The notes below the pieces were generated by a model. It made no database searches and had not been told where the DNA came from. It saw only the letters and a program-made list of their open reading frames with translations. The translations under genes and the position numbers were made by a program. A stretch of 64,000 nucleotides of DNA from a virus (Duplodnaviria > Caudoviricetes). Each line of letters begins with the position of its first letter. Position 1 is the stretch's first letter. The stretch spans positions 59,470 through 123,469 of IMG/VR virus record IMGVR_UViG_3300033076_001485. One strand, 5' to 3'. Below are positions 5,221 to 64,000 of this stretch, in pieces.

Positions 5221-5228
5221 GAGCTTAG

Positions 5229-7274
5229 ATGGCCAAAAATGAAAATCTCTTCTCACGATTAACCACACTATTTAGAAGTGGTCCAGTCATAAAGAGAAGA
5301 GTCAGAGACTATAAAACATCAGAAAAGACAACCTCGGCTTTTGAGCAATTTAGAAAGGCACAGAGCTATGTGTATAGTTCGGCAATGTCTGCATATGGCT
5401 CTTACGATAGAATGGCACGCTATTCAGACTTTCAAGAGATGGAATACACTCCTGAAATTGCATCAGCACTTGACATTTACTCTGAAGAGACAATTTCTCC
5501 AGATGAGAAGGGAAATGTACTTCACATCTATTCTGAAAATCCTACAATTCACAAGCTTTTGAATGAGTTGTTTTATGACACCTTGAACGTCAATTTTAAT
5601 TTGACTTCTTGGTCAAGGAACATGTGCAAATACGGTGACTTCTTCCTGTTCAACGATGTGTCACCCGATCTGGGTGTTGTCAACGTGTACCCCATTCCTG
5701 TTAATGAAATTGAACGTGAAGAGGGATACGACAAAGATGATCCCATGGCAGTTCGATTTCGCTGGGTAACACAGGGCAATCAAGTTTTAGAGAACTGGCA
5801 AGTTTCACATTTTAGAATTCTCGGCAACGATGCATTTCTTCCATACGGATCATCTGTGTTAGAAGCTGCTCGTCGTATTTGGCGCCAACTAATTCTTGTA
5901 GAAGATGCAATGTTGGTTTATCGTGTTGTTCGTGCACCAGATCGTCGTGTTTTTTACATCGATGTTGGAAACGTTCCGCCTGAAGATATTGCCAACTACA
6001 TGGAACAGGCACAAGCGCAACTTAAAAAGAGTCAAGTCGTCGATAAGCAGACAGGACGCGTCGACTTAAGATACAATCCGCTCTCGGTCGATGAAGACTA
6101 TTTCATTCCTGTTAGAGGCGGTCAATCAGGGACAAAAATTGATCCTCTTGCAGGCGGTGCAAATGCCGCTGCAATCGAGGACGTCCAGTACATCCAGAAG
6201 AAATTATTTGCTGCTTTAAAGATCCCTAAAGCCTATCTTGGCTACGACGAAGGACTCGGAGCCAAAGCAACTCTTTCTCAAGAAGACATTCGTTTTTCAA
6301 GAACAATTGCAAGAATTCAGAGAACAATCGTTTCTGAGTTGAACAAGATTGCAATCATTCATCTTCATTCTAACGGTTTTGACGGACCAGATCTTCTTGA
6401 CTTTGATCTAAAGCTTACAAATCCTTCAACTATTGCAATGCAGCAAAAGCTTGAACTCTATAATACGAAGTTCCAGATTGCAGCATCTGCAGTTGGTGTT
6501 GCAGGATTGGTAGACAAGCGATGGATTAGAAAGAAAGTGTTCCAGATGGCTGACGAAGAGATTGATTCAATTGAGAAAGGCCTTATCAAAGACAAAGAAA
6601 TGGAACTCCAGGTTGAGGCAGTCAAACTTCCCGAAGACAAATCAACAATGCCCGATATGTCTGTTGCCGGTGCATCAATTCCAACAAGCCCATTCGCATC
6701 GCCGCCGTCGTTGGGTGGTGAATCACCCACGCCTGAAGCACCAGCGCCAGGAGCAGCAGGCGGAGAAACATCACCTGGTCCAGAGACGGCATCAGATAAT
6801 CGAAATAAAATGAGGCTAGATCTTTTGGGAGAACCTGATTTTGATTTCTCGCGCCTGTCTATCAATGATGAGAATGCACCAATCAAAGCACAAAGCACAG
6901 TTGATGCTATTGGACGTAAGCTTCTAGGCGAGCGTCTTGAAGGAAAAACAAAAGCAGATCGTGACAGATACAATGCAAAGCGTAGAAGGCGCGGTCACCT
7001 ACATGGAATGTCTGATCATTCTTCTATGGTGACACATGATAAAAAGGATCCCACAGATTCAGTAATGAATCCATTCGGTGCAAAAAAAGATCTCATCAAT
7101 CCATTTAAAGATGTGCTTAAAGAAATTGAAGATGATGATGATTTCAGCGAAGACGGCGATTACATATTCACAGACACAAGAATGTCTGAAGTTAACAGCG
7201 TCATAGGTGCTTTGCGTCGTAGAAAGATAGTTAACAATCAGATCTCTGCGTCAAATACGACAGAGGAGGACTAA
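5229..7274 (+). CDS. Portal protein (T4 gp20-like) with Pro-rich and acidic C-terminal extension
   Basis: EDAMLVYRVVRAPDRRVFYIDVGNVPP, EDYFIPVRGG and ALKIPKAYL are typical of gp20-family portals; follows the terminase. Confidence 0.95.
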   Translation: MAKNENLFSRLTTLFRSGPVIKRRVRDYKTSEKTTSAFEQFRKAQSYVYSSAMSAYGSYDRMARYSDFQEMEYTPEIASALDIYSEETISPDEKGNVLHIYSENPTIHKLLNELFYDTLNVNFNLTSWSRNMCKYGDFFLFNDVSPDLGVVNVYPIPVNEIEREEGYDKDDPMAVRFRWVTQGNQVLENWQVSHFRILGNDAFLPYGSSVLEAARRIWRQLILVEDAMLVYRVVRAPDRRVFYIDVGNVPPEDIANYMEQAQAQLKKSQVVDKQTGRVDLRYNPLSVDEDYFIPVRGGQSGTKIDPLAGGANAAAIEDVQYIQKKLFAALKIPKAYLGYDEGLGAKATLSQEDIRFSRTIARIQRTIVSELNKIAIIHLHSNGFDGPDLLDFDLKLTNPSTIAMQQKLELYNTKFQIAASAVGVAGLVDKRWIRKKVFQMADEEIDSIEKGLIKDKEMELQVEAVKLPEDKSTMPDMSVAGASIPTSPFASPPSLGGESPTPEAPAPGAAGGETSPGPETASDNRNKMRLDLLGEPDFDFSRLSINDENAPIKAQSTVDAIGRKLLGERLEGKTKADRDRYNAKRRRRGHLHGMSDHSSMVTHDKKDPTDSVMNPFGAKKDLINPFKDVLKEIEDDDDFSEDGDYIFTDTRMSEVNSVIGALRRRKIVNNQISASNTTEED

Positions 7275-35392: not shown

Positions 35393-36574
35393 ATGCACAA
35401 AAATGATGTGGTTGTTATCGACAGGAAATATCTTGGAACAGCTAGCAACCTCCAGGTGAAAAAAGATTGCATTTCCTTTTGTGATGACCAAGACACAAGT
35501 GACAAGTGGGTGTGGTCTCTTGACAACACATTTAATAGCTTGCGTCATATTGAACTTGTGACTGGATTCAAGGTTGGGTCACAACCTCCCAAAGCACACG
35601 ATGCAGCATGGACAGCACTAGGTGTATCACCTCCATGGGCGCAGGCATTGCCACCGCATGTCTTCAAAACATGGCTACAGAAATTTACCAGAGAGCTTCT
35701 GGATCTCCGAGACCAATGGGCTGACAGTTACTATGGCAATGAATTTCAAGTTCAACAGAGATTACTGCAGAAATTGCAGCAGCCTTTTGTTGATGTGTCT
35801 GTCATTAAACGGATTGATGACGATCGAATTAGAGCATTTGAGCCCGATCGCAACGGGCTTGCTCCTAAGTCAACATACGATATTTGGTCATCAGTAACAG
35901 GTCGAATGTCGATCGAAACTGGACCCAATATTTTGACGTTGGACAAGAAGTATCGAAGCATCTTTAAAAGTAGATTTCCTGACGGTGAGATTATCCAAAT
36001 TGACTTCTCGTCGCTTGAGCCTAATACTTTCTTAGCAATGCAGGGAAAGCAATTCACTAGTGATGCGTATTCTTGGGTTGCATCGCAGATTGATGTTAGT
36101 GTTCCTCGCGATGTTCTAAAAGTTGCTGTCATGTCGGCGCTTTATGGAATGTCACCGTCCAATTTTGCCAAGAAATTTTCTGATATTCCTGACGCAAATG
36201 ATCTTCTATTTCAAGTTCGTGATGCTTTCGGCGTCGACAAGATGAATAAACACTATCGCGAGCAGCTAGACGCAGAAGGACATATCACGAATCACTATGG
36301 GCGAATTATCAAGTGTGATAAATCATCACCACTTGTAGCACATGCAGTTCAATCAACTGCTGTAGATGTTGTCTGCCAAGGATTTACAACACTTCTTGAT
36401 GAGTTTGCAGAAGACAAACTTGATATAGTTCCGCTTTATTTGATTCATGACGCGCTGATGATCGATGTCACACCACACGCTAAACTGCACTTGCAAGAAC
36501 GCCTAAAAAACGGCGTGCATATTGCTTCGCTTGGTTGTACAATGCCCCTCAAATTGAAGACAATTGATGCATGA
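35393..36574 (+). CDS. Family A DNA polymerase domain protein without recognisable exonuclease domains
   Basis: TGRMS, PNI, motif A IDFSSLEP, motif B R..LK..VMSALYGMS, VQSTAVD, motif C LIHDAL. Confidence 0.85.
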   Translation: MHKNDVVVIDRKYLGTASNLQVKKDCISFCDDQDTSDKWVWSLDNTFNSLRHIELVTGFKVGSQPPKAHDAAWTALGVSPPWAQALPPHVFKTWLQKFTRELLDLRDQWADSYYGNEFQVQQRLLQKLQQPFVDVSVIKRIDDDRIRAFEPDRNGLAPKSTYDIWSSVTGRMSIETGPNILTLDKKYRSIFKSRFPDGEIIQIDFSSLEPNTFLAMQGKQFTSDAYSWVASQIDVSVPRDVLKVAVMSALYGMSPSNFAKKFSDIPDANDLLFQVRDAFGVDKMNKHYREQLDAEGHITNHYGRIIKCDKSSPLVAHAVQSTAVDVVCQGFTTLLDEFAEDKLDIVPLYLIHDALMIDVTPHAKLHLQERLKNGVHIASLGCTMPLKLKTIDA

Positions 36575-37158
36575 GCACCGACAACCTAGAAAGCAACTAT
36601 AATATTTTTGTCAAACTCACACAAAAGTGTGGCGATCGTAGCGAGGCACTTATGCGCCTCGTCGAGCAGCTTGGTGAGCGCCTGGCAATTTGCCCTGCGC
36701 ACGACAGACGTGAAAGATCAACTGCGAAACCTGGCGGCCTAATTGAGCACAGTCTCAATGTGGTCAAGACAATGCGTGCAATTGAATCATCAGTCGGGTT
36801 TGGAGTCAATCCTGAAAGCATGATTCTTGTAGGTCTCTATCACGATATCGGTAAGGTGGGTGATCTTACGACAGATTACTATCTCGAGCAGACATCAGAC
36901 TGGCATCGCGATAAAGCAGGCATTCTCTACACATACAATCCTGAGATGCCTAAAATGCCACATGCACATAGATCTCTTGCACTTCTGCAATCTGCGGGTG
37001 TTGTGCTCTCTACCGAAGAGTGGATCGCAATCGCATCAGCACAAGGACCATCTCTTGATGAGAATAAGTTTTATATCGGAGGAGAGACCCCGCTCACTCT
37101 ACTAACTCAAACTGCAATTCGGATAATCTCGCAAAAAGAGAAGGTAGGAGATACTTAG
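36571..37158 (+). CDS. HD-domain phosphohydrolase (YhaM-like)
   Basis: GGLIEHSLNV...GLYHDIGK; ATGA overlap with the polymerase gene. Confidence 0.8.
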   Translation: MSTDNLESNYNIFVKLTQKCGDRSEALMRLVEQLGERLAICPAHDRRERSTAKPGGLIEHSLNVVKTMRAIESSVGFGVNPESMILVGLYHDIGKVGDLTTDYYLEQTSDWHRDKAGILYTYNPEMPKMPHAHRSLALLQSAGVVLSTEEWIAIASAQGPSLDENKFYIGGETPLTLLTQTAIRIISQKEKVGDT

Positions 37159-45363: not shown

Positions 45364-45722
45364 TGCATAGAAAGGCAGAACTATTATTTAAAGTCATAGC
45401 GTGGAGAACATTCTCCATGTGCTATGGTTTTTCAATAGCCTACCTTTTTACAGGAAATGCAGGAGAGTCGGCGGGGATCGTGTTTCTTACCGGTTCTACA
45501 TTGACTCTCCTGCAGTGGTTTTTTGAGATACTTTGGGACAAGTACGCAAGAGGAAGAATAAGACATGCCCTTTCAGGACAACACAGTAGAATTAGTCGGC
45601 TGGTACGGTGGCGACGAGACACACGCACTATCGGCGTGGACGAGCACGAGTCGGGATCTCACAGAGGAGAAGAAGTCACGAATCCCCTCTCTCCTGAAAA
45701 TGCTGGCCGAGAATGGACATGA
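45360..45722 (+). CDS. Small membrane protein (DUF2061-like N-terminus)
   Basis: K.I.WR......IAY.FTG....S..I.........W..E..W two-helix pattern; last 158 nt overlap thyX. Confidence 0.55.
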   Translation: MMHRKAELLFKVIAWRTFSMCYGFSIAYLFTGNAGESAGIVFLTGSTLTLLQWFFEILWDKYARGRIRHALSGQHSRISRLVRWRRDTRTIGVDEHESGSHRGEEVTNPLSPENAGREWT

Positions 45723-46197
45723 GACACCTTTTGAGAAGTCAAGTCTTCACTTTCTTGTGACAGTAGATACAGCAACACATATTCATCTTCTAAAGCATAG
45801 AATTGGCGTCTCAGTAAACGGCGAGTCTGCACGCTATAAAGAATTAAAGAGCGACAAGTACCTCGTTCCACGTGACTGGTCGCTTGAAGAGCAGACAAAA
45901 TATATCGCTTTCATGGAAGACGCTTTAATGCGTTATCATGAGACTTTAAAGCGACTTGTTGACGGCGGCATGGATCGAAAGCGCGCTAAAGAATCTGCAC
46001 GATTCTATTTGCCTTATGGTAATCAGGTTACAATGGACGTCATGTTCAACTGGAGATCATTCACACATTTTCTCGGCCTTCGAATGAAGCCTGATGCACA
46101 AAGAGAAGTGTGCTGGCTAGCAGAGGAAATGTTGCGTCAAGTTCGTGAAATTCCTGGTAATCCTTTTGAGCAGACAATTAACGCTTTCGGTTATTGA
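45565..46197 (+). CDS. thyX: Flavin-dependent thymidylate synthase ThyX
   Basis: GHETPFE, KHRIGVSVNGESARY (ThyX motif with Ser-x-Arg), ESARFYLP, NWRS..HFL.LR....AQRE. Confidence 0.92.
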   Translation: MPFQDNTVELVGWYGGDETHALSAWTSTSRDLTEEKKSRIPSLLKMLAENGHETPFEKSSLHFLVTVDTATHIHLLKHRIGVSVNGESARYKELKSDKYLVPRDWSLEEQTKYIAFMEDALMRYHETLKRLVDGGMDRKRAKESARFYLPYGNQVTMDVMFNWRSFTHFLGLRMKPDAQREVCWLAEEMLRQVREIPGNPFEQTINAFGY

Positions 46198-46650: not shown

Positions 46651-47079
46651 GTGATGACACCGCCTAGATCACCTTACAATCTCATTCAAGAGCAGGTTTA
46701 CGATGATCCCTGGAGGGTCTTCGTAGCCTGCATTTTTTGTAATCAGACAAAGCGTCTAACATCAGAGCCCATCATGTGGGAATTTTGGAGTCGTTGGCCA
46801 ACTGCATCAGATGCAGCTACAGCTCAATTCGAACACGTGCATGATCTGGTAAAAGATTTAGGATTAGGCATGAGGAGAGCAAGCGCACTCATTCGTCTAT
46901 CTCAAGATTATTCAACCAAAGATTGGCAGAGCGATCCGAAAAAGATGCTATTCGGCGTCGGCGATTACGCTCTTGCAGCATATCAGATCTTTTGCTTGTG
47001 TCAGTGGGCTCAGATTCCTGAACCTAAAGACGGTGCTCTGAAGAATTACTGGAAGTGGATCAACAACGTTCAAGACTAG
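46651..47079 (+). CDS. MBD4-like HhH DNA glycosylase domain protein
   Basis: PPRSPYNLIQE....DPWR..VACIF.NQT, LGL..RRA, L.GVG.YA..AY.IFC, P.D..L..YW.W follow the MBD4 glycosylase domain as recalled. Confidence 0.85.
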   Translation: MMTPPRSPYNLIQEQVYDDPWRVFVACIFCNQTKRLTSEPIMWEFWSRWPTASDAATAQFEHVHDLVKDLGLGMRRASALIRLSQDYSTKDWQSDPKKMLFGVGDYALAAYQIFCLCQWAQIPEPKDGALKNYWKWINNVQD

Positions 47080-47091
47080 AGGAGGTGTACC

Positions 47092-47901
47092 ATCCCTGAA
47101 GGACCAGAAGTTAAGATTGTTTCTGAATCGCTTGCTCGACAGATTGTGGGCAAAAGCATCACACGTATCAACTACTTGGGCGGTCGCTATGCTAAACATG
47201 GGCCACCTGACGGGCACACAGAAATTTCATCTGTGCTACCCCAGAATGTGTCTGTTGCATCTTGCAAGGGCAAGTTCATATACCTCACACTCGAGAATAA
47301 TTGGGTGATCTGGAATACACTGGGTATGACGGGTGGGTGGTCGAAGACGAAGCAAAAGCACAGTCGTGCTGAGTTCGTCTTAGATGACGGATCATCTGTA
47401 TTCTTCAACGATCCTCGCAACTTTGGCACGCTGAAGTATGTGCATGGCCTCGAAGCATTGCAAGAGAAGCTTGATGAGCTCGGGCCAGACATGCTTGCTG
47501 AGGACGTTAGCGATGAGCTGTTCATCTCGCGTATGCGTAAGAAGAATAGCCGTGTGATCACTGAGAATTTGATGGATCAAAAAGTAATTGCAGGAGTAGG
47601 GAACTATCTAAAATCAGAAAGTCTCTACTTTGCAGGAATCTCACCCATGAGAAATGTCAGCTCATTAACAGACGGTGAGCTTGCAAAACTTAATCACACT
47701 ATTAAATCAGTGATACGAGCATCATATCAAACGGGTGGTGCTACGATCTACACTTTTCAAGGATTTGATGGTGAGAAGGGGCAATACAGTCGCCGCTTCG
47801 CAGTTTATAATCAAGATAAGGACCCAAATGGGAGAGATGTGAAATCCTTCACATCACCTGAGGGCCGAACAACATTCTGGGTACCAGAGGAGCAAACATG
47901 A
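47092..47901 (+). CDS. mutM: Fpg/Nei family DNA glycosylase/AP lyase, zincless-finger type; probable ATC start
   Basis: In-frame (I)PEGPEV at 47092, KGKFIY, LGMTGGW, FNDPRNFG, LGPD, LMDQKVIAGVGNYLKSESL, GRTTFWVP. Confidence 0.9.
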   Translation: MPEGPEVKIVSESLARQIVGKSITRINYLGGRYAKHGPPDGHTEISSVLPQNVSVASCKGKFIYLTLENNWVIWNTLGMTGGWSKTKQKHSRAEFVLDDGSSVFFNDPRNFGTLKYVHGLEALQEKLDELGPDMLAEDVSDELFISRMRKKNSRVITENLMDQKVIAGVGNYLKSESLYFAGISPMRNVSSLTDGELAKLNHTIKSVIRASYQTGGATIYTFQGFDGEKGQYSRRFAVYNQDKDPNGRDVKSFTSPEGRTTFWVPEEQT

Positions 47902-48128
47902 ATTACAGACTTTCAGATCAGACAATCGGGCAGATTGCAAAACTTCTACAGATCGCAATCATTACGGGAACAGATATCGTCGATAATCTTAGGACTATTC
48001 GACTTCGCACTGACGACGGCGGTGAGTTTCTTGATCCTACACCAGACTATCTTGAGAATTTTGAGAAGAATCTGAGCGCAATGATCGAGAATCTTGCAGA
48101 TCAGACAAATAACACTACGAGTGAGTGA
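47898..48128 (+). CDS. Small hypothetical protein
   Basis: ATGA overlap, SD GAGGAG; LLQIAIITGTDIVDNLR. Confidence 0.7.
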   Translation: MNYRLSDQTIGQIAKLLQIAIITGTDIVDNLRTIRLRTDDGGEFLDPTPDYLENFEKNLSAMIENLADQTNNTTSE

Positions 48129-48129
48129 T

Positions 48130-48504
48130 ATGGACAAGCTTGATAGCATGTTTCAGATGCGCAAGGAGTTCATGGCAGCACTTTCTGCGCATGTACCCAA
48201 TGCGTATCCGCAGCAGCCAATTGATCTAGGCAGTAAGAAGTCACAGCAGCATTTTAGAGATCTTGCGCTGCGAGGTGTCGAAGAAGTATTCGAGGCACTC
48301 CAGCACCTAAAGAATACGAAGCCGCATCGTGTAACAGAGATTAATGAGCCTGTTGATGTTGATGCTTTCAAGGAAGAAATGGTTGATGCTTTTAATTTCT
48401 TTCTAACATTGCTTATTCTTATGGATGTTGACGCCAAAGACTTATACGAAGCATTCCAGAAGAAAGACCAAATCATTCACGATCGAATTCGGAATAACTA
48501 CTAA
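48130..48504 (+). CDS. All-alpha NTP pyrophosphatase (dimeric dUTPase / MazG-like)
   Basis: EEVFEA...K.H...EEMVD.F.F...K.......R...Y acidic metal-binding pattern. Confidence 0.8.
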   Translation: MDKLDSMFQMRKEFMAALSAHVPNAYPQQPIDLGSKKSQQHFRDLALRGVEEVFEALQHLKNTKPHRVTEINEPVDVDAFKEEMVDAFNFFLTLLILMDVDAKDLYEAFQKKDQIIHDRIRNNY

Positions 48505-49445
48505 TGAAATTCAAGAAGATGTTGAAGCGCCAGAGAGCATTCTCGAATCTGTTCTTTGACGCTGAGAAGTTTGATGATGTCAAACGAGAAGAAATGACAA
48601 AGTCATTCGCACTTGCACTTCACGGAGAAGTGTCAGCGCTCGTTAGCTCGATCAATTTCAAAGATCATCATGCAAATCGTAAAACTCCTGATCGCGAGAA
48701 GATTCTTTACGAGTCTGTTGATGTTCTTCGATATCTTCTTGCAATTATGAACACGTGGGGTTACACATCTGAAGAAGTCGATGACGCATTCAATGATAAA
48801 GATACATTCCTTCACATGCGTCACAAGAGCGAGACTGCTAAGTGGGACGGTCGACCCGTGCTTATTGTTGACGTTGATGACGTCATAGCACACTTTAGAA
48901 AAGACTACTTTAAGTGGCTTGAGAAGAAGTATAGCATCGAAATCCCACAGGACTATCCTGAGTATTACGCGTCTTCACCCCTGAAAGATAGGGGCATTAA
49001 TCCCGAAGCAACATTTAAGGACTTCATTAGCGATCGAAAACTCCGCGACATTGAACCCATTGATGGCATGATTAATGTTCTTCAACGCGCACAAGAAATG
49101 GGTTACTGGATTCAACTTCTTACAGCAAGGCCAGACCAGAATTTAATCTGCCTGTACGACACGTACCACTGGATCAGCCAGATGAAAATTCCTTTTGATG
49201 GACTTGCATTTAGCGGTGAGAAGTATCGTTGGGTAGTTCAAAGCCCATTTTACGGCCATGTTGCGGCATGCATTGATGATTCACCTAAACACGCTGCCGA
49301 ATATTCTTCGCATGGTTTGCTTGTATTTTCGCCAGCACTATCGTATAATACATCGTTGAGGGACGTAAAGAACGTCGTTCACTATAACAATCCAGATCAA
49401 CTTCTAGAACAGCTTTCTAATCTCATTAAGGAAAACTCAAAATAA
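48504..49445 (+). CDS. Fusion of a MazG/dUTPase-like domain and a HAD 5'(3')-deoxyribonucleotidase-like domain
   Basis: N-terminal GEVSAL...FKDH...ESVDVLRY; C-terminal VDVDDVIA (DxD), LTARP, IDDSPKH, YN; TAATG-coupled on both sides. Confidence 0.8.
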   Translation: MKFKKMLKRQRAFSNLFFDAEKFDDVKREEMTKSFALALHGEVSALVSSINFKDHHANRKTPDREKILYESVDVLRYLLAIMNTWGYTSEEVDDAFNDKDTFLHMRHKSETAKWDGRPVLIVDVDDVIAHFRKDYFKWLEKKYSIEIPQDYPEYYASSPLKDRGINPEATFKDFISDRKLRDIEPIDGMINVLQRAQEMGYWIQLLTARPDQNLICLYDTYHWISQMKIPFDGLAFSGEKYRWVVQSPFYGHVAACIDDSPKHAAEYSSHGLLVFSPALSYNTSLRDVKNVVHYNNPDQLLEQLSNLIKENSK

Positions 49446-50386
49446 TGCCACAGAATCTCGATCTCCAGCCCATCACTCTTCCCATGGCAATTCGTTTCGG
49501 CGAGGAGCCCACCACAGAGTTCGTCAACAGTCTTGATGCACTCAAGCTTGAGCTGGTTGATGCACCTGATCCCAAGTCTATTCGTCAGGCAGTTTACTGC
49601 TTCGTCAAGTCGACGTGGGCTGACCAGCATGTTCCTTACCGCGACGCAACAGATGCTGAGCTCTCTAAGACCATGGAGGACGTCTTCGCAGGTCGAGCTC
49701 TTCCAGCAGCAATGGAACTGATTGGTCTCACCTTCCTTGTGGGTGGTATCGACACACAGACTGTGACCCATCTCATCCGCCACCGCGCAGGTTCCTTTGC
49801 TGCACAGTGCACAGGTGACCGATGGCTTTCTCACGAGCGCAGCCTTGTCCCTGGTTCGATCCAGAACAGCCCAGAGTTCTACGCTCGCTGGCAGGCACAT
49901 GTGCAGGAGGCTAAGCAGCTCTACACAGACATGGTCGATTCTAAGACCATCAGCCTTATGGATGCACGGCACGTTCTTCCTAAGTGCCTCGAGACCTTCT
50001 ACTACATGCGCATGAATATTCGCGATGCATTTGCCTTCATCAAGCAGCGCCAGGACAAGCAGATCCAGCCTGAAGAGGATAACATGCTTGCAGCTCTCAT
50101 GGCACGTGAGATCCTCAAGGTGTTCCCCGAGGCGCACGTCGCAATTAACCTCCGTGAGCCTGCTTGGCACTACATCAAGACGTTCCGAAATGGTACAGGC
50201 ACGAACCTCTACTGGCCTGACGAGGATAGCGAGAAGCACCTCACATACCATCCGAATGATACGATCTATCAGGCAACTCGCGATGACATGAATGGTACTA
50301 GTGGTGGTGTTCCGCACTTCCGCAAGCTTTGGAATGAGACGCTCGCAGAGATTGACCAGCTCGTGGCTAATTATAAAGCGCGCTGA
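49445..50386 (+). CDS. Divergent ThyX-like flavoprotein (second paralog)
   Basis: AME...LTF...G....VTHLIRHR..SFAAQC, Y..MVD......DARHVLP, MN.R....FIKQR; the Ser-x-Arg of the ThyX motif is replaced by CTGDR. Confidence 0.8.
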   Translation: MPQNLDLQPITLPMAIRFGEEPTTEFVNSLDALKLELVDAPDPKSIRQAVYCFVKSTWADQHVPYRDATDAELSKTMEDVFAGRALPAAMELIGLTFLVGGIDTQTVTHLIRHRAGSFAAQCTGDRWLSHERSLVPGSIQNSPEFYARWQAHVQEAKQLYTDMVDSKTISLMDARHVLPKCLETFYYMRMNIRDAFAFIKQRQDKQIQPEEDNMLAALMAREILKVFPEAHVAINLREPAWHYIKTFRNGTGTNLYWPDEDSEKHLTYHPNDTIYQATRDDMNGTSGGVPHFRKLWNETLAEIDQLVANYKAR

Positions 50387-52910: not shown

Positions 52911-54893
52911 ATGTCAGTAACAAAAATCAGCCAGAGCCAGATCAAGGGCACAGGCAAGGCAGACCTCGGTTCAGAGCTCTCAGCAGTTGAGCTTGCTATT
53001 AAGAACGCAGTCGGTGGTGCCAACTACGAGTCCGTTGCTGAGCTCAACCTCACCGCAATCAGCGGAATGATCAGCCGTGCACCCGATGGCAAGCTTGAGT
53101 TCGACGTAAATGTCGACGCAAAGAGCCATGACATCAGTAACATCAGCAATCTCTCTGCAAACGTTGGTTCATTCGTAACCACACACGCAGGAATGGTTGA
53201 CGGCTCAACAGCAACCTTCGCAACCACACACGCAGGCGCACTCGACGCATCAAGCGCACAGGTCAACGGCCCCCTCGGCGTCACCGGTAACTCCAACCTC
53301 GGCGGCAACGTCAGCGTTGGCGGATCCGTTGTGATCGCTGGTGGACTCGACGTCCAGGGCGCAATGACCTACCTCGAGACCCAGGACCTCAAGGTCAAGG
53401 ACGCAAGAGTCGTCATCGCTGACGGCATCACCAGCTTCCTCGGCGGCGAAGGTTTCTACCTCGGTTCTGAGTCCGGCTCACACAAGCTCGTGTGGGATGC
53501 TCTGACAAGCCGCTGGGCACTTTCTGACGGTCTCAAGTCAGTCGACTTCAAGGCCGGCGGCAAGACCCTCGTGGACAGCACAGGCGTTCACGGTGACGCC
53601 GCAGGTCTCAAGATCGACGGCGCAGGCGTTGTGCAGTTCCAGGACCAGTTCATGCCAGGCCCCATGGACCTCAGCAAGACCGGCGAGTTCGCAGACGTCT
53701 TCGGCCCCCAGAAGTGGGCAGACGGCCTCGGCCTCATTGGCGCCCTGAACAAGGCACGCAGCGATGCATACAACTACGTCGACACCAACTACGCCGACCT
53801 CGCTGCAGACCTCGCAGCTGAAGTTGCTCGCGCAGAAGGCGTTGAGGCAGGCCTCGCACAGGACATCGCAGACGAGGCAGCAGCCCGCGCAGCAGCCGAC
53901 GTTGCACACGACGCAGCAATCTCCGCCGAGATCGCTCGTGCATCAGCAGCAGAGGCCCAGATTTCTTCTGACCTCTCAGCAGAGATCGCCCGCGCAACAG
54001 CAGCCGAGGCTTCAATCTCTGCTTCTGTCACAGCTGAAGTTGCTCGTGCAACAGCCGCTGAAGGCGTCCTCACCACCAACCTCGCAGCCGAGGTTTCACG
54101 TGCAACTGCAGCAGAAGGCGTGCTCACCGCAAACCTCTCAGCTGAAGTAAGCCGTGCACAGGCAGCCGAGGCGGACCTTGCTGCAGACATCGCAGCACTC
54201 GAGATCCTCGAGGGCAACCACTACGGCGAGCTCTCAGCAGCAATCTCTGCTGAGGTTGTTCGTGCAACAGGCGCAGAGACAGTTCTTGACAACAAGATCA
54301 CTGCTGAGAAGAACCGTGCAGAAGCTGCAGAGCTCTCACTCGACGGCAAGATCACAACTGAGAAGAACCGTGCAATGGCAGCTGAGGCTGCTCTTTCCAC
54401 AGACATCTCTGCTGAAGTTGCTCGCGCAACAGCTGCAGAGGGCGTTCTCACACAGAACTTGGCTGCCGAGGTTTCTCGTGCAACAGCTGCTGAAGGCGTT
54501 CTGACTGCAAACCTCGCAGCTGAAGTTGCTCGCGCAACAGCTGCAGAGGCTGCTCTAACAACTGCAATCAGCGATGAGGCAGCTGCTCGTATCGCTGGCG
54601 ATGCAGATCTCCAGGGACAGCTCGACACCCTCAAGGGCAAGATTGCAACCCAGGCAACACGCATCTTCGTGGCAGTGATCCCCAACGGTGCAGACCTCGC
54701 CATGGACAGCGACCTCACCGGTTACGCTGGCAGCGAGTTCGTCATGCCCGCCGGCAAGAATGCTGTCAACTACGACATGTACCTCAACGGTCAGCAGATG
54801 ATGTGGAACCAGGACTTCGTCTTCGTCGGCGGAAAGGTCCAGTTCAAGTTTGCCCTCAAGGCAGGCGACGTGGTCCGCTTCCGCGAGTTCTAG
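52911..54893 (+). CDS. Fibre-like virion protein with 18-residue Ala-rich coiled-coil repeats
   Basis: GNV.VGG...I.GGL.V.G beta segment, repeats AEV(A/S)RATAAEGVLT.NL., C-terminal YLNGQ..M..QDF module; capsid-like codon bias; followed by a terminator. Confidence 0.75.
   Translation: MSVTKISQSQIKGTGKADLGSELSAVELAIKNAVGGANYESVAELNLTAISGMISRAPDGKLEFDVNVDAKSHDISNISNLSANVGSFVTTHAGMVDGSTATFATTHAGALDASSAQVNGPLGVTGNSNLGGNVSVGGSVVIAGGLDVQGAMTYLETQDLKVKDARVVIADGITSFLGGEGFYLGSESGSHKLVWDALTSRWALSDGLKSVDFKAGGKTLVDSTGVHGDAAGLKIDGAGVVQFQDQFMPGPMDLSKTGEFADVFGPQKWADGLGLIGALNKARSDAYNYVDTNYADLAADLAAEVARAEGVEAGLAQDIADEAAARAAADVAHDAAISAEIARASAAEAQISSDLSAEIARATAAEASISASVTAEVARATAAEGVLTTNLAAEVSRATAAEGVLTANLSAEVSRAQAAEADLAADIAALEILEGNHYGELSAAISAEVVRATGAETVLDNKITAEKNRAEAAELSLDGKITTEKNRAMAAEAALSTDISAEVARATAAEGVLTQNLAAEVSRATAAEGVLTANLAAEVARATAAEAALTTAISDEAAARIAGDADLQGQLDTLKGKIATQATRIFVAVIPNGADLAMDSDLTGYAGSEFVMPAGKNAVNYDMYLNGQQMMWNQDFVFVGGKVQFKFALKAGDVVRFREF
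53817..54600 (+). repeat. Imperfect 54-bp (18-aa) tandem coding repeats
   Basis: GCTGAAGTTGCTCGCGCAACAGCTGCAGAGG is identical at 54411-54441 and 54519-54549 (108 bp apart). Confidence 0.85.
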
Positions 54894-58068: not shown

Positions 58069-58512
58069 ATGAATAACGTCTATATCGCAAGTGGTTGGTT
58101 TTCTCCAGAGTGGCTCCAGGAAGTTGAGGACATCAAAGGTGTTCTTGATGAGCTTAAGCTAGGCTATTTCTCTCCAAAAGATTTTGCCATTGCTGAGGCA
58201 ACGGCAGGACTTGATACACAAAAGCAGATCTTTGACGGAAATGTCGAGCATCTTGACAAGTGTGATTGGATGATCTGCAATACCCGAAACAAGGACATGG
58301 GTTCAATCTGGGAGGCAGGTTACTTCTATGCCCGCAATAAGCCCATCGTCTACTTCTGCGCAGGCCTCCCACCCGGTGCTAAGTTCAATCTCATGCTCTC
58401 GGCAAGCGGAATTGCAGTTTGCACATCTATCCAGGAGCTTCGTGAGTACCTTGAGATTTGCATTCACGAGGGCCGGCTCCAGCGTCGCCCATATGCAGGT
58501 TTAATTGAGTAG
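58069..58512 (+). CDS. Nucleoside 2'-deoxyribosyltransferase / nucleotide N-hydrolase family protein
   Basis: VYIASGWF, FSP, IF..N...L..CD, DMGSIWEAGY.YA.NKP (catalytic Glu), FNLML. Confidence 0.88.
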   Translation: MNNVYIASGWFSPEWLQEVEDIKGVLDELKLGYFSPKDFAIAEATAGLDTQKQIFDGNVEHLDKCDWMICNTRNKDMGSIWEAGYFYARNKPIVYFCAGLPPGAKFNLMLSASGIAVCTSIQELREYLEICIHEGRLQRRPYAGLIE

Positions 58513-59328: not shown

Positions 59329-60309
59329 ATGAAGATACTCATTACTGGTCACCGGGGTTTCATTGCATCTAACCTTCCACCTGCTTTTGCTGATCTCGAT
59401 CATGAGGTAATAGATTCGGATCGACTGCGTCTAAGGCATCTGCTTCCAACGGGCGAGCATTGCGTTTATCGGAACAGTGAGGACGATTGGGCAAGCGAGA
59501 TCAAGCGACTAAAAGTTGATGTCGTTGTTCACAATGCAGCGGCTGTCGGCACAGATGTTGTTGCTCTCAATCCTAGTGAGGCAACGCTAAGCAATGTAAC
59601 TGGTACTTACAATATCTGCCGTGCAGCTGAAAAGGCAGGAGCAGCTGTTCTTTACTTGGGAACAACAGTAATCTACAATACAGAGCTATACCAGAATTCA
59701 TGGATCGCTGAGCGATCCTCACACGGTCCCAAGACTTATTATGGCTCACTAAAACTGGCAGGAGAGCACATCGTCAAGTCACATAGCACGAAGTGGTCGA
59801 TTGTCCGGCCTCTCTTTTGCTACGGTGGCGTGGGTGATAACAACTCCTTGATTGCTAAGGGTTTCTACGGTGCAGCGACCGGCAAACAGCAGATTGACAT
59901 GTTCCTCGATCCCAATAAAATCAAGGACTACATGCGCGTTGAGGACTTCTGCGATGCAGTTGCGACCGTTGTCGACAAGGAGCTTTGGAACGACGACTGG
60001 AATGTTGCTGCCGAGACGCCTGCCAACACCGGTAAAATTGTAGAGCTAATGAGCGAGATTGCGTGCAAGGATCTTAAGGGTGTGGTAAAATGGCACCCAG
60101 GAACCGATTACTTGGGCAATCATCGTCTAAGCTCACAGAAGTTCAGGGATGCGTCTGGGTGGACGCCGAAGTTCGACCTGAAGTGTGGATTGGAAAAGTC
60201 ATGGAATGATATCCAACGTAATCTGGGTTCTACGGATTATAATCCTCTGCGTTATCTAGAAGATGCCAAAAAGCGCGGCATCGATCTCAAGCAATACTTC
60301 AACCAGTGA
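59329..60309 (+). CDS. NAD-dependent epimerase/dehydratase (extended SDR)
   Basis: ILITGHRGFIA, VVHNAA, NVTGT, YGSLK (YxxxK), R....YG, KDYMRVEDF. Confidence 0.9.
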   Translation: MKILITGHRGFIASNLPPAFADLDHEVIDSDRLRLRHLLPTGEHCVYRNSEDDWASEIKRLKVDVVVHNAAAVGTDVVALNPSEATLSNVTGTYNICRAAEKAGAAVLYLGTTVIYNTELYQNSWIAERSSHGPKTYYGSLKLAGEHIVKSHSTKWSIVRPLFCYGGVGDNNSLIAKGFYGAATGKQQIDMFLDPNKIKDYMRVEDFCDAVATVVDKELWNDDWNVAAETPANTGKIVELMSEIACKDLKGVVKWHPGTDYLGNHRLSSQKFRDASGWTPKFDLKCGLEKSWNDIQRNLGSTDYNPLRYLEDAKKRGIDLKQYFNQ

Positions 60310-60315
60310 GTTAAA

Positions 60316-63300
60316 ATGAGCATCATTCGTCCGCCTAGCCGTTTTGTAGGTCTCCACGCGCATTCAGGCTTCAGTACAATGGACGGCCTCGGCTATCCTG
60401 CACAACACATCGACTTCGTCCTCAAGAATGGCATGGACGCATGGGCGCTGACTGACCACGGCAATGGCAGCGGTCTGGCACATGCGCAGTCACATGCCAA
60501 GAAAATGAAGAAGGCAGGGCAGAAGTATCGGCAGCTTAATGGTGTCGAGTTCTACTTCGTTCCTTCACTCAAGAACTGGGCAACGCAGTATCAGGATCAC
60601 AAGGATGCAGTGGCAGCTGCACGCTCTGAGAAAAAGTCAAAAGAGACAACTGATATTGATGCCGATGATGAGGCAGGTGCAGGCCACATCATTGAGAACG
60701 AAGATGAGACGAAGGATGCTTCATCACTAGACGTCAAGGATGACGAGTGGAAGCGCCGCTACCACCTTGTGGTTCTTGCCAAGAATAAGCAGGGTCTTGC
60801 AAACCTCTTTACACTAGTCAAGCGATCCTTCAAGGAAGGTTACTACCGGTTCCCACGCATCGACTTTGACATGCTCAAGGAGCACGGCGAAGGTCTGGTC
60901 GTCAGCACTGCATGCATTGGCGGTATTATGTCGAACCGCGTCCTCCGCGGTCAGGCAATGCAGAAGTCTGACGCCGAGATCCAGCGTGATCTCAAGAATC
61001 TCGCTGACAGGTTCGTTGATGCTGTTGGCATCGACAATTTCAATCTCGAGATCCAGTTCAACAAGCTCCAAGCACAGCATGACGTCAATCGACACCTGAT
61101 TGGACTACACAAGAGTACGGGTATTCCTCTCGTAGCAACATGTGATAGTCATTATCCTACACCTGACAAGTGGAAGACGCGAGAGCTCTATAAGAAGCTA
61201 GCATGGATGAATGCGAAGGAGGAGCCCAAGCCTCTGCCGACATTCGACGAACTGAAGTGTGAGCTCTACCCAAAGAATGCTGACCAGATGTGGGAAGAGT
61301 ACCAAAAGCATATTTCCGAACATGAGTTCTATCAAGGCACTGAGGAACTGGTCCGAGATGCAATCGAGCGGACACACGACATCGCATGGCAGCAGTGTGA
61401 AGATGTCTGGGTTGATTCTCATGCCAAGCTTCCAGTCTTCAGCACACCTGAGAAGACCGAGTTCCAGCAGCTTGCAGAGCTAGTCAAGGCTCGCGCTATC
61501 GAGATGGGTCTTCACGAGAAGCCGGAATATATGGAGCGTCTCAAGGAGGAGCTCTCAGACATCAAGCATCTGGGTCACGCATCTTACTTCCTCACCATGA
61601 ACAAGATCTTCCACAAGGCGCAGGAGCGGACACTCCTCGGGCCAGGTCGTGGATCTGCACCAGGATCGTTGGTCAACTATGTACTTGGCATCACTCAGAT
61701 CGATCCGCTTCCGTTCGGTCTTCTCTGGAATCGCTTCCTTGGTCGGCATCGTGTGTCTTGGCCTGACATTGACTCTGATGCTGGTGATCGTGACGTTCTT
61801 ATTGACGCGGCACGTGAGCTCTTCGGTGACGATGCTGTCATTCCCGTCTCCAACTTCAACACCCTGAAGCTGAAGTCACTGGTGAAGGACGTCGCGAAGT
61901 TCTTCAACGTCCCGTTCGAGGAGGTCAATGCAGTCACTGGGCCGCTCCAGGACGAGGTCATGCCGCACGCGAAGGATGACGACCAGGAAAAGTCGGTCTT
62001 CGTTCTGAAGCATGATGACTGCATGAAGTACTCGCCTGCTTACAATGCATTCATGACCAAGTATCCCGAGGTGGAGGAGCACGTTAATGCTCTCTTCATG
62101 GAAAACCGATCGATTGGTCGCCATGCAGGTGGTGTTCTTGTTGCAGAACCCAAGGCGCTGGCTGAGGGTATGCCCATCATCGGTGTCCGAGGTGAGTTGC
62201 AGACTCCCTGGACTGAGGGCATGAACTTCAGAAATCTTGAGGACAACGGATTCCTCAAGTTCGACTTCCTCGGACTCACGTTGCTCAAGGACGTAGAGAA
62301 CTGCATCAAGCGTATCTTGATCAAGCAGGGTGTCAAGAACCCGACATTCACCCAGATCAAGGACTTCTTTGACGAACATCTCAACTGCCGGACTGTCAAG
62401 CAGGACGATCCAAAGGTCTGGAAGCATGTTTATCATGAAGGTCGATTTGTCGGCGTCTTCCAGTTCACTGCAGACGGTGCACGTAAGTTCTGCCTTGAGG
62501 CAAAACCCACAAACATCGGAGAGCTAGCAGCACTGACTGCAATCTATCGACCTGGACCGCTCAAGGCAAACGTCCATAAACTCTATGTCCAGGCGAAGAA
62601 GGATGCATCGAAGATCAAGTACGACCACCCAGTCATCCAGGAGGTTCTAGGACCGACATTCGGTTACGTGGTCTTCCAGGAACAGTTCATGATGCTTGCC
62701 CAGAAACTGGCTGGGTTCTCACCTGGTGAGGCTGACCAACTTCGCAAGACGCTCGTCAAGAAGTCGCTGGACACGCTGGGCAAGAAGTCCTCTGAGAAAG
62801 AGGCAGCACGTAAGCAGTTTATCGAAGGTGCACTTAGTCTCCATAACGTACCTGAAAAGGTGACAGGACCACTCTGGGATACTATCGAGGCTTTCTCAGT
62901 CTACGGCTTCAACAAGTCACACTCCGTGTCCTACGCGATTGATTCCTATTACGCTGGTTGGTTGCACACCCACTACGAGAAGGAGTGGCTGGCAACTATC
63001 CTCCAGTCCGAGACAGGCAACCCAAAGCTTCTTGCAAAAGCAATTAATGAAATCAAGCAAATTGGTTACAAGTTCTCGCAAGTTGATATTAACTACTCGG
63101 GCACAGAGTGGACATATTCTGAAGAAATTCAAGCATTCGTTCCGCCTCTTACCTCTGTAAAGGGCTTAGGTGATGCTGCTGTTAATGAAATTCTCACAAA
63201 TCGTCCCTACAAGGCTCTAAGCGATCTGCTCTTTGATGAAGAGGGCGAATGGCGTCACTCTAAGCTGAATAAAAGCTGCCTTGAATCTCTAATCCTAACA

Positions 63301-63879
63301 GAAAGTCTAGGTTCATTACATGAGTTTAAGAACGAGATCTTGAATAACCACAATCAGCTGCACAAAATGGTTATTGACAATTACGACACTTTGCGCAAGG
63401 GTCGCACTGGAATGACCAAAACAGCAACAAAGAAGTGGGTTAAAGAGCACGGCAAAGAGCCCGATGTCATCTCTAAGTTAATTGAAGAAACAGCAGATGT
63501 TCCAGACTGGAATCGTTACGAGAAGATCAAGAATTTCATCGAAATCTTAACAACAGCCTCAGAAGAGCTGCTCTTTCCTCCTGCAGTTATGGCAAAAATT
63601 GAAAGATCTAACGTCCCTTCTGCAATGCAGATTCAACCGGGCACAAAAGCAGTCGTGTGGTTCTGCGCAAGAGAATGGGTCAAGAAGCAAACAAAGAACG
63701 GTAAAACATTCTATACAGTCCATGCATTAGACAATAACAGCGAGCTTGGTAGAATTCGTGTGTGGGGTACGTTCAAAGAAGAACCAGAAGCTTACACAAT
63801 GTGGTTGGCTGAAGTTGAATATGATGCAAACTGGGGCATGTCGTCATCAGCAATGAAAATGCGAAAGATTGAGGTTTAA
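60316..63879 (+). CDS. dnaE: DNA polymerase III alpha subunit (family C, DnaE-type)
   Basis: PHP LHAHS..S..DG, ALTDHG, HLVVLAKN, TACIGG, DSHY; GRGSAPGSLV; PDIDSD; GRHAGG; KFDFLGL; GVFQF; RPGP; FQEQ; YGFNKSH. Confidence 0.96.
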   Translation: MSIIRPPSRFVGLHAHSGFSTMDGLGYPAQHIDFVLKNGMDAWALTDHGNGSGLAHAQSHAKKMKKAGQKYRQLNGVEFYFVPSLKNWATQYQDHKDAVAAARSEKKSKETTDIDADDEAGAGHIIENEDETKDASSLDVKDDEWKRRYHLVVLAKNKQGLANLFTLVKRSFKEGYYRFPRIDFDMLKEHGEGLVVSTACIGGIMSNRVLRGQAMQKSDAEIQRDLKNLADRFVDAVGIDNFNLEIQFNKLQAQHDVNRHLIGLHKSTGIPLVATCDSHYPTPDKWKTRELYKKLAWMNAKEEPKPLPTFDELKCELYPKNADQMWEEYQKHISEHEFYQGTEELVRDAIERTHDIAWQQCEDVWVDSHAKLPVFSTPEKTEFQQLAELVKARAIEMGLHEKPEYMERLKEELSDIKHLGHASYFLTMNKIFHKAQERTLLGPGRGSAPGSLVNYVLGITQIDPLPFGLLWNRFLGRHRVSWPDIDSDAGDRDVLIDAARELFGDDAVIPVSNFNTLKLKSLVKDVAKFFNVPFEEVNAVTGPLQDEVMPHAKDDDQEKSVFVLKHDDCMKYSPAYNAFMTKYPEVEEHVNALFMENRSIGRHAGGVLVAEPKALAEGMPIIGVRGELQTPWTEGMNFRNLEDNGFLKFDFLGLTLLKDVENCIKRILIKQGVKNPTFTQIKDFFDEHLNCRTVKQDDPKVWKHVYHEGRFVGVFQFTADGARKFCLEAKPTNIGELAALTAIYRPGPLKANVHKLYVQAKKDASKIKYDHPVIQEVLGPTFGYVVFQEQFMMLAQKLAGFSPGEADQLRKTLVKKSLDTLGKKSSEKEAARKQFIEGALSLHNVPEKVTGPLWDTIEAFSVYGFNKSHSVSYAIDSYYAGWLHTHYEKEWLATILQSETGNPKLLAKAINEIKQIGYKFSQVDINYSGTEWTYSEEIQAFVPPLTSVKGLGDAAVNEILTNRPYKALSDLLFDEEGEWRHSKLNKSCLESLILTESLGSLHEFKNEILNNHNQLHKMVIDNYDTLRKGRTGMTKTATKKWVKEHGKEPDVISKLIEETADVPDWNRYEKIKNFIEILTTASEELLFPPAVMAKIERSNVPSAMQIQPGTKAVVWFCAREWVKKQTKNGKTFYTVHALDNNSELGRIRVWGTFKEEPEAYTMWLAEVEYDANWGMSSSAMKMRKIEV

Positions 63880-63881
63880 AA

Positions 63882-64000
63882 ATGAAATTTGATCTAAAAA
63901 CAGTAGTGCTTGAAGGTGTTGATTGCAGCGGCAAGACTACTGCGTTTTCTAAGATACACAAAATGACAGGATTTAAGTGGAACATTCACGATAGAAGCAC
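63882..64000 (+). CDS. dNMP (thymidylate-type) kinase, N-terminal fragment running off the window
   Basis: MKFDLKTVVLEGVDCSGKTT...IHDRS: P-loop EGxDxSGKTT plus DRS; starts 2 nt after the dnaE stop. Confidence 0.72.
   Translation, partial: MKFDLKTVVLEGVDCSGKTTAFSKIHKMTGFKWNIHDRS

Follow-up and report, generated by a model that had tools for sequence, protein, structure and literature searches.

A rewired ThyX-fold protein in a conserved phage nucleotide cassette: a candidate route to a modified DNA pyrimidine in large marine phages

The 64-kb stretch of viral DNA considered here, referred to as the window, is the terminal part of a 123-kb IMG/VR record (IMGVR_UViG_3300033076_001485; CheckV completeness 39%) which by its gene content comes from an uncultured large marine phage of the myovirus type. 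It encodes a divergent homologue of the flavin-dependent thymidylate synthase ThyX, here called TXL (ThyX-like; 49445-50386), directly behind two genes for nucleoside triphosphate (NTP) pyrophosphatases. The reading favoured here, to which a probability of roughly 0.55 is given on the basis of sequence and gene content, is that TXL makes a modified DNA precursor before replication, namely a pyrimidine nucleotide carrying a C5 modification other than that of thymine. Sequence and structure comparison show the fold, the residues kept and lost, the partnership of genes conserved between lineages and the presence of TXL alongside ThyX; a product other than thymidine monophosphate (dTMP), its entry into DNA and the choice of pyrimidine are inferred.

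TXL is the last member of a trio of open reading frames (48130-48504, 48504-49445 and 49445-50386) that overlap by one base at TAATG junctions; these and the other cassette genes given with window coordinates below lie on the + strand. The first encodes an all-alpha NTP pyrophosphatase of the MazG/PRA-PH-like type (phrog_12184, 2.8e-14, a PHROG labelled nucleotide pyrophosphohydrolase; the Pfam PRA-PH match of 19.8 bits is under cut-off). The second is a fusion of an N-terminal dUTPase_2-like NTP pyrophosphatase (residues 3-98, 27.1 bits) with a C-terminal HAD 5'-deoxynucleotidase of the NT5C family (residues 117-300, 39.8 bits), both domains exceeding the Pfam cut-off. TXL itself matches Pfam Thy1 at 72.8 bits (cut-off 24.8). 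A canonical ThyX that retains the HETPFE and ES-x-RY motifs is also encoded in the window (45565-46197, + strand; Thy1 120.8 bits). On the NCBIfam thyX equivalog TIGR02170, this canonical copy scores 103.5 bits, while TXL at 51.2 bits stays under the cut-off of 87.9. Single-sequence PDB searches with TXL, the MazG-like protein and the fusion returned nothing useful.

The codon usage of TXL resembles that of the capsid gene, with a GC content at third codon positions (GC3) of 0.60 and a correlation of relative synonymous codon usage (RSCU) with the capsid gene of 0.73, against an ordinary GC3 of 0.45 and a correlation of 0.18 for the canonical ThyX; the two pyrophosphatase genes give correlations of 0.02 and 0.17. 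Across the genes of the window, codon usage is sharply bimodal: capsid, gp32, TXL, ClpP, the DnaE-type polymerase, ribonucleotide reductase (RNR), the deoxyribosyltransferase NDT and a 660-aa Ala-rich fibre-like protein (52911-54893) form a group at GC3 0.5-0.7, and most other genes lie at 0.2-0.45. Capsid-like codon usage is as expected for a slow enzyme supplying DNA synthesis. The initial annotation had pointed to the canonical thyX besides a paralog, the TAATG-coupled trio and the capsid-like codon usage of the paralog, and all of these observations held. The phage also has a polymerase of its own (DnaE, 60316-63879).

The rewiring of TXL becomes apparent when its residues are compared with those of ThyX. 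The AlphaFold model of TXL (predicted local distance difference test, pLDDT, 83.9) matches ThyX and PolB structures in Foldseek at about 1e-9, with TM-scores (by target) of 0.65-0.75 for the ThyX structures. Residues were mapped by aligning the family profile to Thermotoga maritima ThyX with HMMER and were read together with their conservation in 38 relatives. TXL retains E58, R78, H79, R80, R147, N163, R165, R174, D176 and Q180 of ThyX, and the RHR motif and the ligands of flavin adenine dinucleotide (FAD) and of the phosphate of deoxyuridine monophosphate (dUMP), that is E58, R78, H79, R80, R147 and R174, are invariant in the relatives. By contrast, the His53 position is an invariant Leu86, N85 and E86 have become Ala, the Ser88 position is an invariant Cys122 placed exactly at RHR+8, and R90 and Y91 have given way to Gly-Asp with the Arg shifted two residues on. 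The S-x-R-Y loop is therefore not found in TXL, where the loop reads C122-T-G-D-R126 and does not vary. Because the invariant Cys122 sits at the Ser88 position, the T. maritima S88C mutant is the top-scoring PDB sequence for the family profile. The features of the paralog that had been listed before (RHR, the AAQCTGDR loop, DAR..LP and the C-terminal extension, which is about 85 aa long) are all present, and they do not vary among the 38 relatives.

In ThyX, H53 stacks on the pterin of folate and on the reduced flavin, and Y91 is the proposed general acid, whose mutation makes flavin oxidation about 1000-fold slower (PMC11940539). Because of the residues retained, those replaced and the missed equivalog cut-off, TXL is a ThyX-fold flavoprotein in which binding of a nucleoside monophosphate has very probably been retained, and, judged from the same residues, the parts tied to folate and to methylene transfer are rebuilt. 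With the canonical ThyX or FDTS enzymes (EC 2.1.1.148; T. maritima TM0449, Mycobacterium tuberculosis ThyX; PF02511, TIGR02170), TXL has in common the fold, RHR and the residues that bind FAD and phosphate; apart from the loss of His53, the exchanged loop, the extension and the low equivalog score, it differs from them in having been seen here only in viral sequence and in coexisting with a true ThyX. A ThyX fold with a new function is already found in PolB of polyoxin biosynthesis (4P5A/4P5B; Foldseek rank 6 for TXL), a C5-methylase of UMP and dUMP. PolB still methylates, has the length of a canonical ThyX and belongs to bacterial secondary metabolism rather than to a phage DNA-precursor cassette, and it differs in these respects from what is proposed for TXL.

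The proposed pathway would be built around a neofunctionalised ThyX fold in which binding of FAD and of a pyrimidine (deoxy)nucleoside monophosphate persists and from which the canonical activity, reductive methylation that turns dUMP into dTMP with methylene tetrahydrofolate (CH2-THF), has been lost. The all-alpha NTP pyrophosphatase, present here in two copies of which one is fused to the nucleotidase, would make the monophosphate substrate and/or remove the competing triphosphate. TXL with reduced FAD would then install a non-methyl group at C5, the leading products being hydroxymethyl, through water capture of an exocyclic methylene, or hydroxyl, through flavin/O2 chemistry as in the ThyA-fold synthases of 5-hydroxy-deoxycytidine monophosphate (5hodCMP). 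A dedicated Tmk-like kinase, fused in this clade to a minimal ThyA-fold domain of the type that acts on deoxycytidine monophosphate (dCMP), would phosphorylate the product, the phage DnaE would incorporate the modified nucleotide into DNA, and the canonical ThyX would supply ordinary dTMP. A 5,6-dihydropyrimidine, formed by transfer of a flavin hydride to C6 with the Cys as general acid, was considered as a purely speculative alternative. Acid-quenched ThyX is reported to have yielded 5-hydroxymethyl-dUMP in the 2012 work of Mishanina et al. ThyA-fold enzymes have already switched to flavin/O2 hydroxylation (PMC13326640).

The gene neighbourhood of TXL was compared in a marine-clade set of 80 IMG/VR loci (lowest TXL identity 50%), which together with the window and the cultured Geobacillus phage GR1 makes 82 loci without dereplication. 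Directly 5' of TXL, the NTP pyrophosphatase is found in 78 of them, the fusion in 74 and a gene for a conserved 76-aa protein (o76) in 67, so that the trio does co-occur in relatives, which had been named as a check on the original claim. In the window, o76 lies just 5' of the pyrophosphatase gene (47898-48128), and it has no match in Pfam or PHROG. The usual marine order is MBD4-like glycosylase, Nei-like glycosylase, o76, pyrophosphatase, fusion, TXL, NDT, in some cases a short-chain dehydrogenase/reductase (SDR), DnaE, kinase fusion, SDR, cupin, thymidine kinase (TK) and DHH, with DnaE 3' of TXL in most loci. The window departs from this order by a block of structural genes inserted between TXL and NDT. 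Much of this co-occurrence is inherited synteny, which counts against the reading favoured here, and for this reason independent lineages were examined.

In a 52-kb phage with DnaE, the order is NDT, a YfbR-like HD 5'-deoxynucleotidase, TXL, kinase, methyltransferase and DnaE. Two phages with a PolB polymerase have NDT, HD, a gene of the uracil-DNA glycosylase (UDG) family, TXL and PolB in the first case, and PolB, a small dUTPase_2-like gene, NDT, kinase and TXL in the second; the cassette thus recurs next to either kind of polymerase. For the most distant subgroup, 28 loci remained after dereplication; of the Pfam families found next to TXL in them, dUTPase_2 is the most frequent (18 matches), ahead of Thymidylate_kin, NDT, UDG and NT5C, and hidden Markov models built here give the order NTP pyrophosphatase, often fused to NT5C, then TXL, then kinase. 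The same pyrophosphatase-NT5C fusion stands directly 5' of TXL in distant groups. That non-homologous 5'-deoxynucleotidases, NT5C and the YfbR-type HD protein, occupy the same slot points to function rather than ancestry. The components expected of a pre-replicative pyrimidine-replacement module of the T4/SPO1 type, namely an NTP pyrophosphatase, a synthase similar to thymidylate synthase (TS), a deoxynucleoside monophosphate (dNMP) kinase and the phage's own polymerase, are encoded together in the window as well as in distant lineages. The tightest partners of TXL, neither of which the initial annotation had named, are the Tmk-like kinase, here fused to the ThyA-fold domain, and the deoxyribosyltransferase.

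In the window only the N-terminus of this kinase remains, as the end of the record cuts the gene (63882-64000); its 39 aa, which include the P-loop of a Tmk/YorR-like dNMP kinase, are 62% identical to a 302-aa protein encoded immediately after DnaE in a marine relative (L012:16514-17422). The model of this protein (pLDDT 93.7) has two domains. The N-terminal one is a kinase of the YorR/dNK/Tmk type (VIA Z 13.2 to YorR; sequence E-value 2.3e-9). The C-terminal one is a compact ThyA fold of about 150 residues without the folate-binding N-terminal half, and in structure it comes closest to a flavin-dependent dCMP hydroxylase, that of phage HY126 (9IQU; VIA Z 12.1, root-mean-square deviation 2.8, 149 residues), and to MilA. 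Its best sequence match is the dCMP hydroxymethylase of T4 (0.0024), with an invariant Cys aligned to the catalytic C148, an R-S-x-D segment aligned to R168-D171 and an invariant Asp aligned to D179, the position of dCMP specificity. An Asp at this position switches ThyA-family enzymes from dUMP to dCMP (PMC13326640). The domain therefore has the fold, the catalytic Cys and the N177D signature for dCMP that are seen in 5hodCMP synthases; their D169N signature (PMC13326640) is lacking, since the family reads R-S-T-D-V and keeps the Asp. In GR1 and some distant loci the ThyA-fold domain is a separate gene beside TXL, and in the loci L088, L090, L099 and L103 it is absent and the kinase stands alone, which makes it a frequent and not an obligatory partner. 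In one distant lineage (L095:9421-10308), the C-terminal half of the kinase partner is not ThyA-like and gives a weak Pfam match to the UDG superfamily (3e-4); TXL has neighbours of the UDG family in further lineages as well.

These properties of the ThyA-fold domain bring up another division of labour, in which the domain itself is the true modifier of dCMP, in effect a fusion of T4 gp42 and gp1 without the folate site, and TXL is an accessory flavoprotein that serves it, either as an NAD(P)H-driven flavin reductase or as a flavin-bound carrier of one-carbon units. The structural and sequence matches of the domain to dCMP-modifying enzymes and its Cys and Asp at C148 and D179 speak for this, as do the loosely bound flavin of the ThyA-fold 5hodCMP synthases (PMC13326640) and a gene of the nitroreductase type directly 5' of TXL in GR1. 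Yet TXL and the pyrophosphatase are constant in the loci from which the domain is missing, TXL keeps the phosphate ligands R147, R78 and R80 that a pure flavin reductase would not need, and the domain retains its Asp at D169, so that this explanation is regarded as quite unlikely.

A bolder form of the reading favoured here gives both proteins a catalytic part. TXL would be the first ThyX-fold maker of a non-methyl C5-modified deoxypyrimidine for DNA, with folate-independent flavin chemistry, and would form a composite with the kinase-fused ThyA-fold domain that binds dCMP; the chemistry would be O2-dependent hydroxylation or hydroxymethylation through a methylene on flavin N5. This composite is put forward tentatively, as a proposal open to considerable doubt.

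GR1 (OK896991.1) provides a setting for the cassette in a cultured phage. All components of the cassette are there, namely NDT, HD, a Tmk-like kinase, TXL, DnaE and a MazG/dUTPase_2-like gene, and the phage has neither ThyA nor a canonical ThyX. As GR1 lacks a ThyA-family gene, TXL or its small ThyA-fold neighbour would be the only candidate makers of a hydroxylated base in this phage. About 2 kb 5' of TXL lies a glycosyltransferase gene (4552-5931, L001) which matches the alpha-glucosyltransferase family phrog_2888 at 6e-53 and gp313 of Bacillus phage G with 35% identity, and which matches the alpha-glucosyl transferase of a T4-like phage weakly (8e-6, 22.5% identity). GR1 DNA may, going by this gene, carry a glucosylated base. 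In the record of the window, the corresponding check brought up genes of the glycosyltransferase families GT1 and GT2 upstream, and the match of the GR1 protein to the T-even enzyme is a distant one.

Apart from the inherited synteny in the marine clade, several observations weigh against the reading favoured here. The Arg equivalent to R174, which in ThyX reads O4/N3 of uracil, is invariant in TXL. In distant subgroups the Ser88 position does not always hold Cys and can be S, G, T or H. dUTPase, thymidylate synthase, Tmk, UDG and TK are also the ordinary kit for thymidylate supply and uracil hygiene. The complete genomes of GR1 and of G009 have TXL as their sole TS-like gene, without ThyA, and the GR1 glucosyltransferase homologue was found neither in the record of the window nor in the fetched loci. 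TXL may instead be a genuine if divergent dTMP synthase, perhaps with another reductant or another one-carbon donor such as formaldehyde, in which case the cassette would be a thymidylate pathway (dUTPase, TS, Tmk) with added salvage (NT5C, NDT, TK) and uracil repair. The membership of the neighbouring families in thymidylate metabolism, the TXL-only genomes and the retained Arg, phosphate and FAD ligands agree with this view. ThyX is able to take free formaldehyde instead of folate (PMC8316439), and so the loss of H53 need not abolish methylation.

A dTMP synthase of this kind is nevertheless considered unlikely. TXL and ThyX have persisted side by side in a radiation whose TXL sequences have diverged to about 50% identity, and a near-universal S-x-R-Y loop has been replaced by a different one that is equally invariant. 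TXL also stays under the equivalog cut-off, a nucleotidase that destroys dNMPs would be odd when fused to the upstream enzyme of a supply pathway, and next to its TXL gene GR1 encodes a protein distantly homologous to the DNA alpha-glucosyltransferase of T-even phages. Redundancy of TXL is argued against by its occurrence together with a canonical ThyX, which is seen in the window, in four out of five large records of relatives (completeness 61-87%) and in a complete genome of the distant subgroup, G010. The TXL-only genomes fit a full base replacement as well as TXL acting as the thymidylate synthase. The initial annotation stands in two of its interpretations: the paralog is not a redundant ThyX, given the rewired loop, the lost His53, the failed equivalog and the coexistence with ThyX, and the cassette has the architecture of known precursor-level base replacement, with pyrophosphatase, synthase, dNMP kinase and polymerase of its own. 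Two others were not established. The pyrophosphatases and the nucleotidase, which had been assigned the role of clearing a competitor, could equally supply substrate as T4 gp56 does, and the claimed non-thymine product competes with an ordinary thymidylate route that also fits the data, two complete genomes being TXL-only.

If the pyrimidine is indeed modified, the evidence is split as to which one it is. Cytosine is indicated by the dCMP-type partner domain, the MBD4-like glycosylase, the GR1 glucosyltransferase and the coexistence with ThyX, whereas uracil is indicated by the invariant R174 equivalent and by the set of dUTPase_2, NT5C, TK and NDT. The NDT gene of the window (58069-58512; Pfam Nuc_deoxyrib_tr, 56.6 bits) encodes a nucleoside 2'-deoxyribosyltransferase of the true NDT type: the family profile matches 6EVS at 3.3e-19 and 1S2D at 9e-10 as opposed to only 0.065 for DNPH1, the catalytic Glu E82 as well as D76 and Y5 are invariant, and the family is nearer to nucleoside NDTs than to dNMP N-hydrolases. 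NDT directly follows TXL in most relatives and is also present in GR1, in L088 and L090 and on the P0131 contig.

The MBD4-type gene (46651-47079; Pfam HhH-GPD) is a homologue of an enzyme that removes T, U and 5-hydroxymethyluracil opposite G, deamination products of 5-methylcytosine and 5-hydroxymethylcytosine. In a relative of the window copy (L071:6356-6829), about 144 residues align with the glycosylase domain of vertebrate MBD4 proteins at 1.6e-48. In the G-x-D-S/A-Y segment, whose Asp is the catalytic residue of MBD4, MBD4 and relatives of the phage protein read SDAY or NDSY; many of these relatives have SDAY, and the window copy and its closest relatives read LAAY, with Ala at this position, so that the window copy may be inactive or repurposed. 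The next gene encodes a Nei/NEIL1-like DNA glycosylase/AP lyase (47092-47901; Pfam H2TH and Fapy_DNA_glyco), whose relative in L004 matches PDB 3A42, 3A45 and 3VK7, presumably the NEIL1 orthologue of mimivirus, at about 6e-44. Ahead of its N-terminal PEGPEV (window 47080-47097) there is no ATG, GTG or TTG, and the relatives start with MPEGPEV. An ATC at 47092, 6 nt after AGGAGG, immediately precedes PEGPEV and is probably used as a rare start codon, because the catalytic N-terminal Pro must be exposed.

The same neighbours could also be read as a cassette whose sole task is to rebalance or clean up the nucleotide pool, for instance through conversion of host dNMPs via nucleosides and base swapping. 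The substrate of TXL would then be a pyrimidine nucleotide that is damaged or catabolic, and the DNA would contain nothing unusual. A nucleotidase of the NT5C or YfbR kind would make up a complete loop of nucleoside salvage with TK and a true NDT, and both glycosylases, MBD4-like and NEIL1-like, belong to repair. This is thought very unlikely, as the capsid-like codon usage of TXL indicates an enzyme of bulk flux, TXL is fixed between pyrophosphatase and dNMP kinase and beside the replicative polymerase, and the distant alpha-glucosyltransferase homologue of GR1 indicates a decorated base.

TXL belongs to a large family. Over 1,200 metagenomic proteins, most of them marine, came up in the search for near relatives, and an exhaustive profile search gave 72 clusters (50% identity) below 1e-30 and 245 below 1e-10. 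No relative was found in a scan of 185,579 prokaryote genomes with strict motif patterns, and the family was seen here only in viral sequence. Among 50,697 phage records, a nucleotide search with the trio had no match, and a protein search returned GR1 as the only cultured carrier (46% identity). More distant members of the family match many ThyX genes of cultured phages at 25-30% identity, which are taken to be canonical or intermediate ThyX. The phylogeny that had been asked for was built with FastTree: TXL of the window and of GR1 and about 50 representatives form one clade with a Shimodaira-Hasegawa-like support of 96, while the deep nodes are not resolved (support 19) and the canonical ThyX of the window type sits on a branch of 2.5 units whose placement is unreliable. 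One TXL homologue (P0149) has a C-terminal HNH/His-Me endonuclease domain, and DnaE is split into two or three pieces with inserted reading frames in L013, L062 and L065; together these suggest traffic of homing endonucleases or inteins in the TXL module. Another homologue, P0134, is a fused form of 551 aa, for which a PDB search with the N-terminal 265 aa returned nothing useful and a GT2 match of 22.1 bits, under the cut-off of 23.3, was not relied on.

Among known systems, the logic of the cassette is the same as in the T-even pathway to 5-hydroxymethylcytosine, which consists of the dCTPase/dUTPase gp56, the dCMP hydroxymethylase gp42, the dNMP kinase gp1 and the alpha- and beta-glucosyltransferases. 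The likeness extends to the distant alpha-glucosyltransferase homologue of GR1 and to the kinase partner, whose dCMP hydroxymethylase-like domain has equivalents of Cys148 and Asp179. The TXL cassette departs from the T-even pathway in its synthase, which has a ThyX fold and not a ThyA fold, and in its additional genes for a 5'-nucleotidase and a nucleoside deoxyribosyltransferase. The ThyA-fold 5hodCMP synthases (RB69 gp48, DLP3 gp80 and HY126 AfhB; 9IQU/9IQC; PMC13326640) are a case in which a TS-like scaffold has moved from folate to flavin/O2 chemistry, and their product is phosphorylated by a cognate dNMP kinase and then glycosylated in DNA (PMC13326640). TXL differs from them in its ThyX fold, and the kinase-fused domain in the Asp kept at the D169N position.

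The initial annotation knew of no comparable pathway with a ThyX fold. A partial precedent does exist in Bacillus phage SP-15, which has two Thy1 proteins (gp9 and gp130) and in which about half of T is replaced by a hypermodified base (PMC5977210); its divergent Thy1 protein was only hypothesised to be a synthase of 5-hydroxymethyl-dUMP (PMC5977210). Profile comparison detected no similarity between SP-15 gp130 and TXL (hhalign probability 0.3%). The wider picture is one in which, to our knowledge, the characterised precursor-level pyrimidine modifications of phages all start from ThyA-fold enzymes, and we know of no ThyX-fold enzyme that makes a DNA base other than thymine.

The remaining genes of the window place the cassette in its phage. 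A T4-like terminase, a portal protein, a gp23-type capsid protein and two sheath paralogs are encoded together with replication genes for the DnaE-type polymerase (Pfam PHP, DNA_pol3_alpha, finger and HHH_6), a class II RNR, UvsX/RecA, gp32 and DnaB, and the closest cultured relatives of the capsid protein, at less than 51% identity, are from Flavobacterium and Microcystis phages. Adjoining the polymerase gene is one for an SDR epimerase/dehydratase of the sugar-nucleotide type (59329-60309; Pfam Epimerase, 97.5 bits), present in 61 of the 82 loci in a conserved arrangement. Besides DnaE, the window has a gene for a 393-aa family-A polymerase-like protein (weak Pfam match, phrog_17) followed immediately by one for an HD-domain phosphohydrolase (35393-37158). 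Upstream of the window (G000:C1, about 16.8-31 kb; loci L172 and L173), four GT1 and two GT2 glycosyltransferases are clustered with two methyltransferases, a UDP-glucose/GDP-mannose dehydrogenase, an epimerase/dehydratase, SpoVR, PrkA and PhoH; virion proteins or DNA may be the targets of the sugars of this cluster. Synthesis of UDP-arabinose as in RB69, from the UDP-glucose dehydrogenase and the SDR of the record, was considered and dropped, as the published route starts at ribulose-5-phosphate.

The idea is directly testable, since GR1 is in culture and an assay by co-expression in Escherichia coli with liquid chromatography-mass spectrometry has been published (PMC13326640). If the reading favoured here is true, this viral ThyX-fold family, with its constant pyrophosphatase and kinase partners, would be a second, independent enzymatic origin of modified DNA bases and would extend the flavin chemistry known for nucleotides. 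The DNA of abundant marine giant phages would then pass for ordinary in standard sequencing. Should the composite also hold, one pathway would combine the lineages of ThyX and ThyA, and an undescribed and possibly glycosylated DNA base would be present in GR1 and throughout a large clade of giant phages from the sea.

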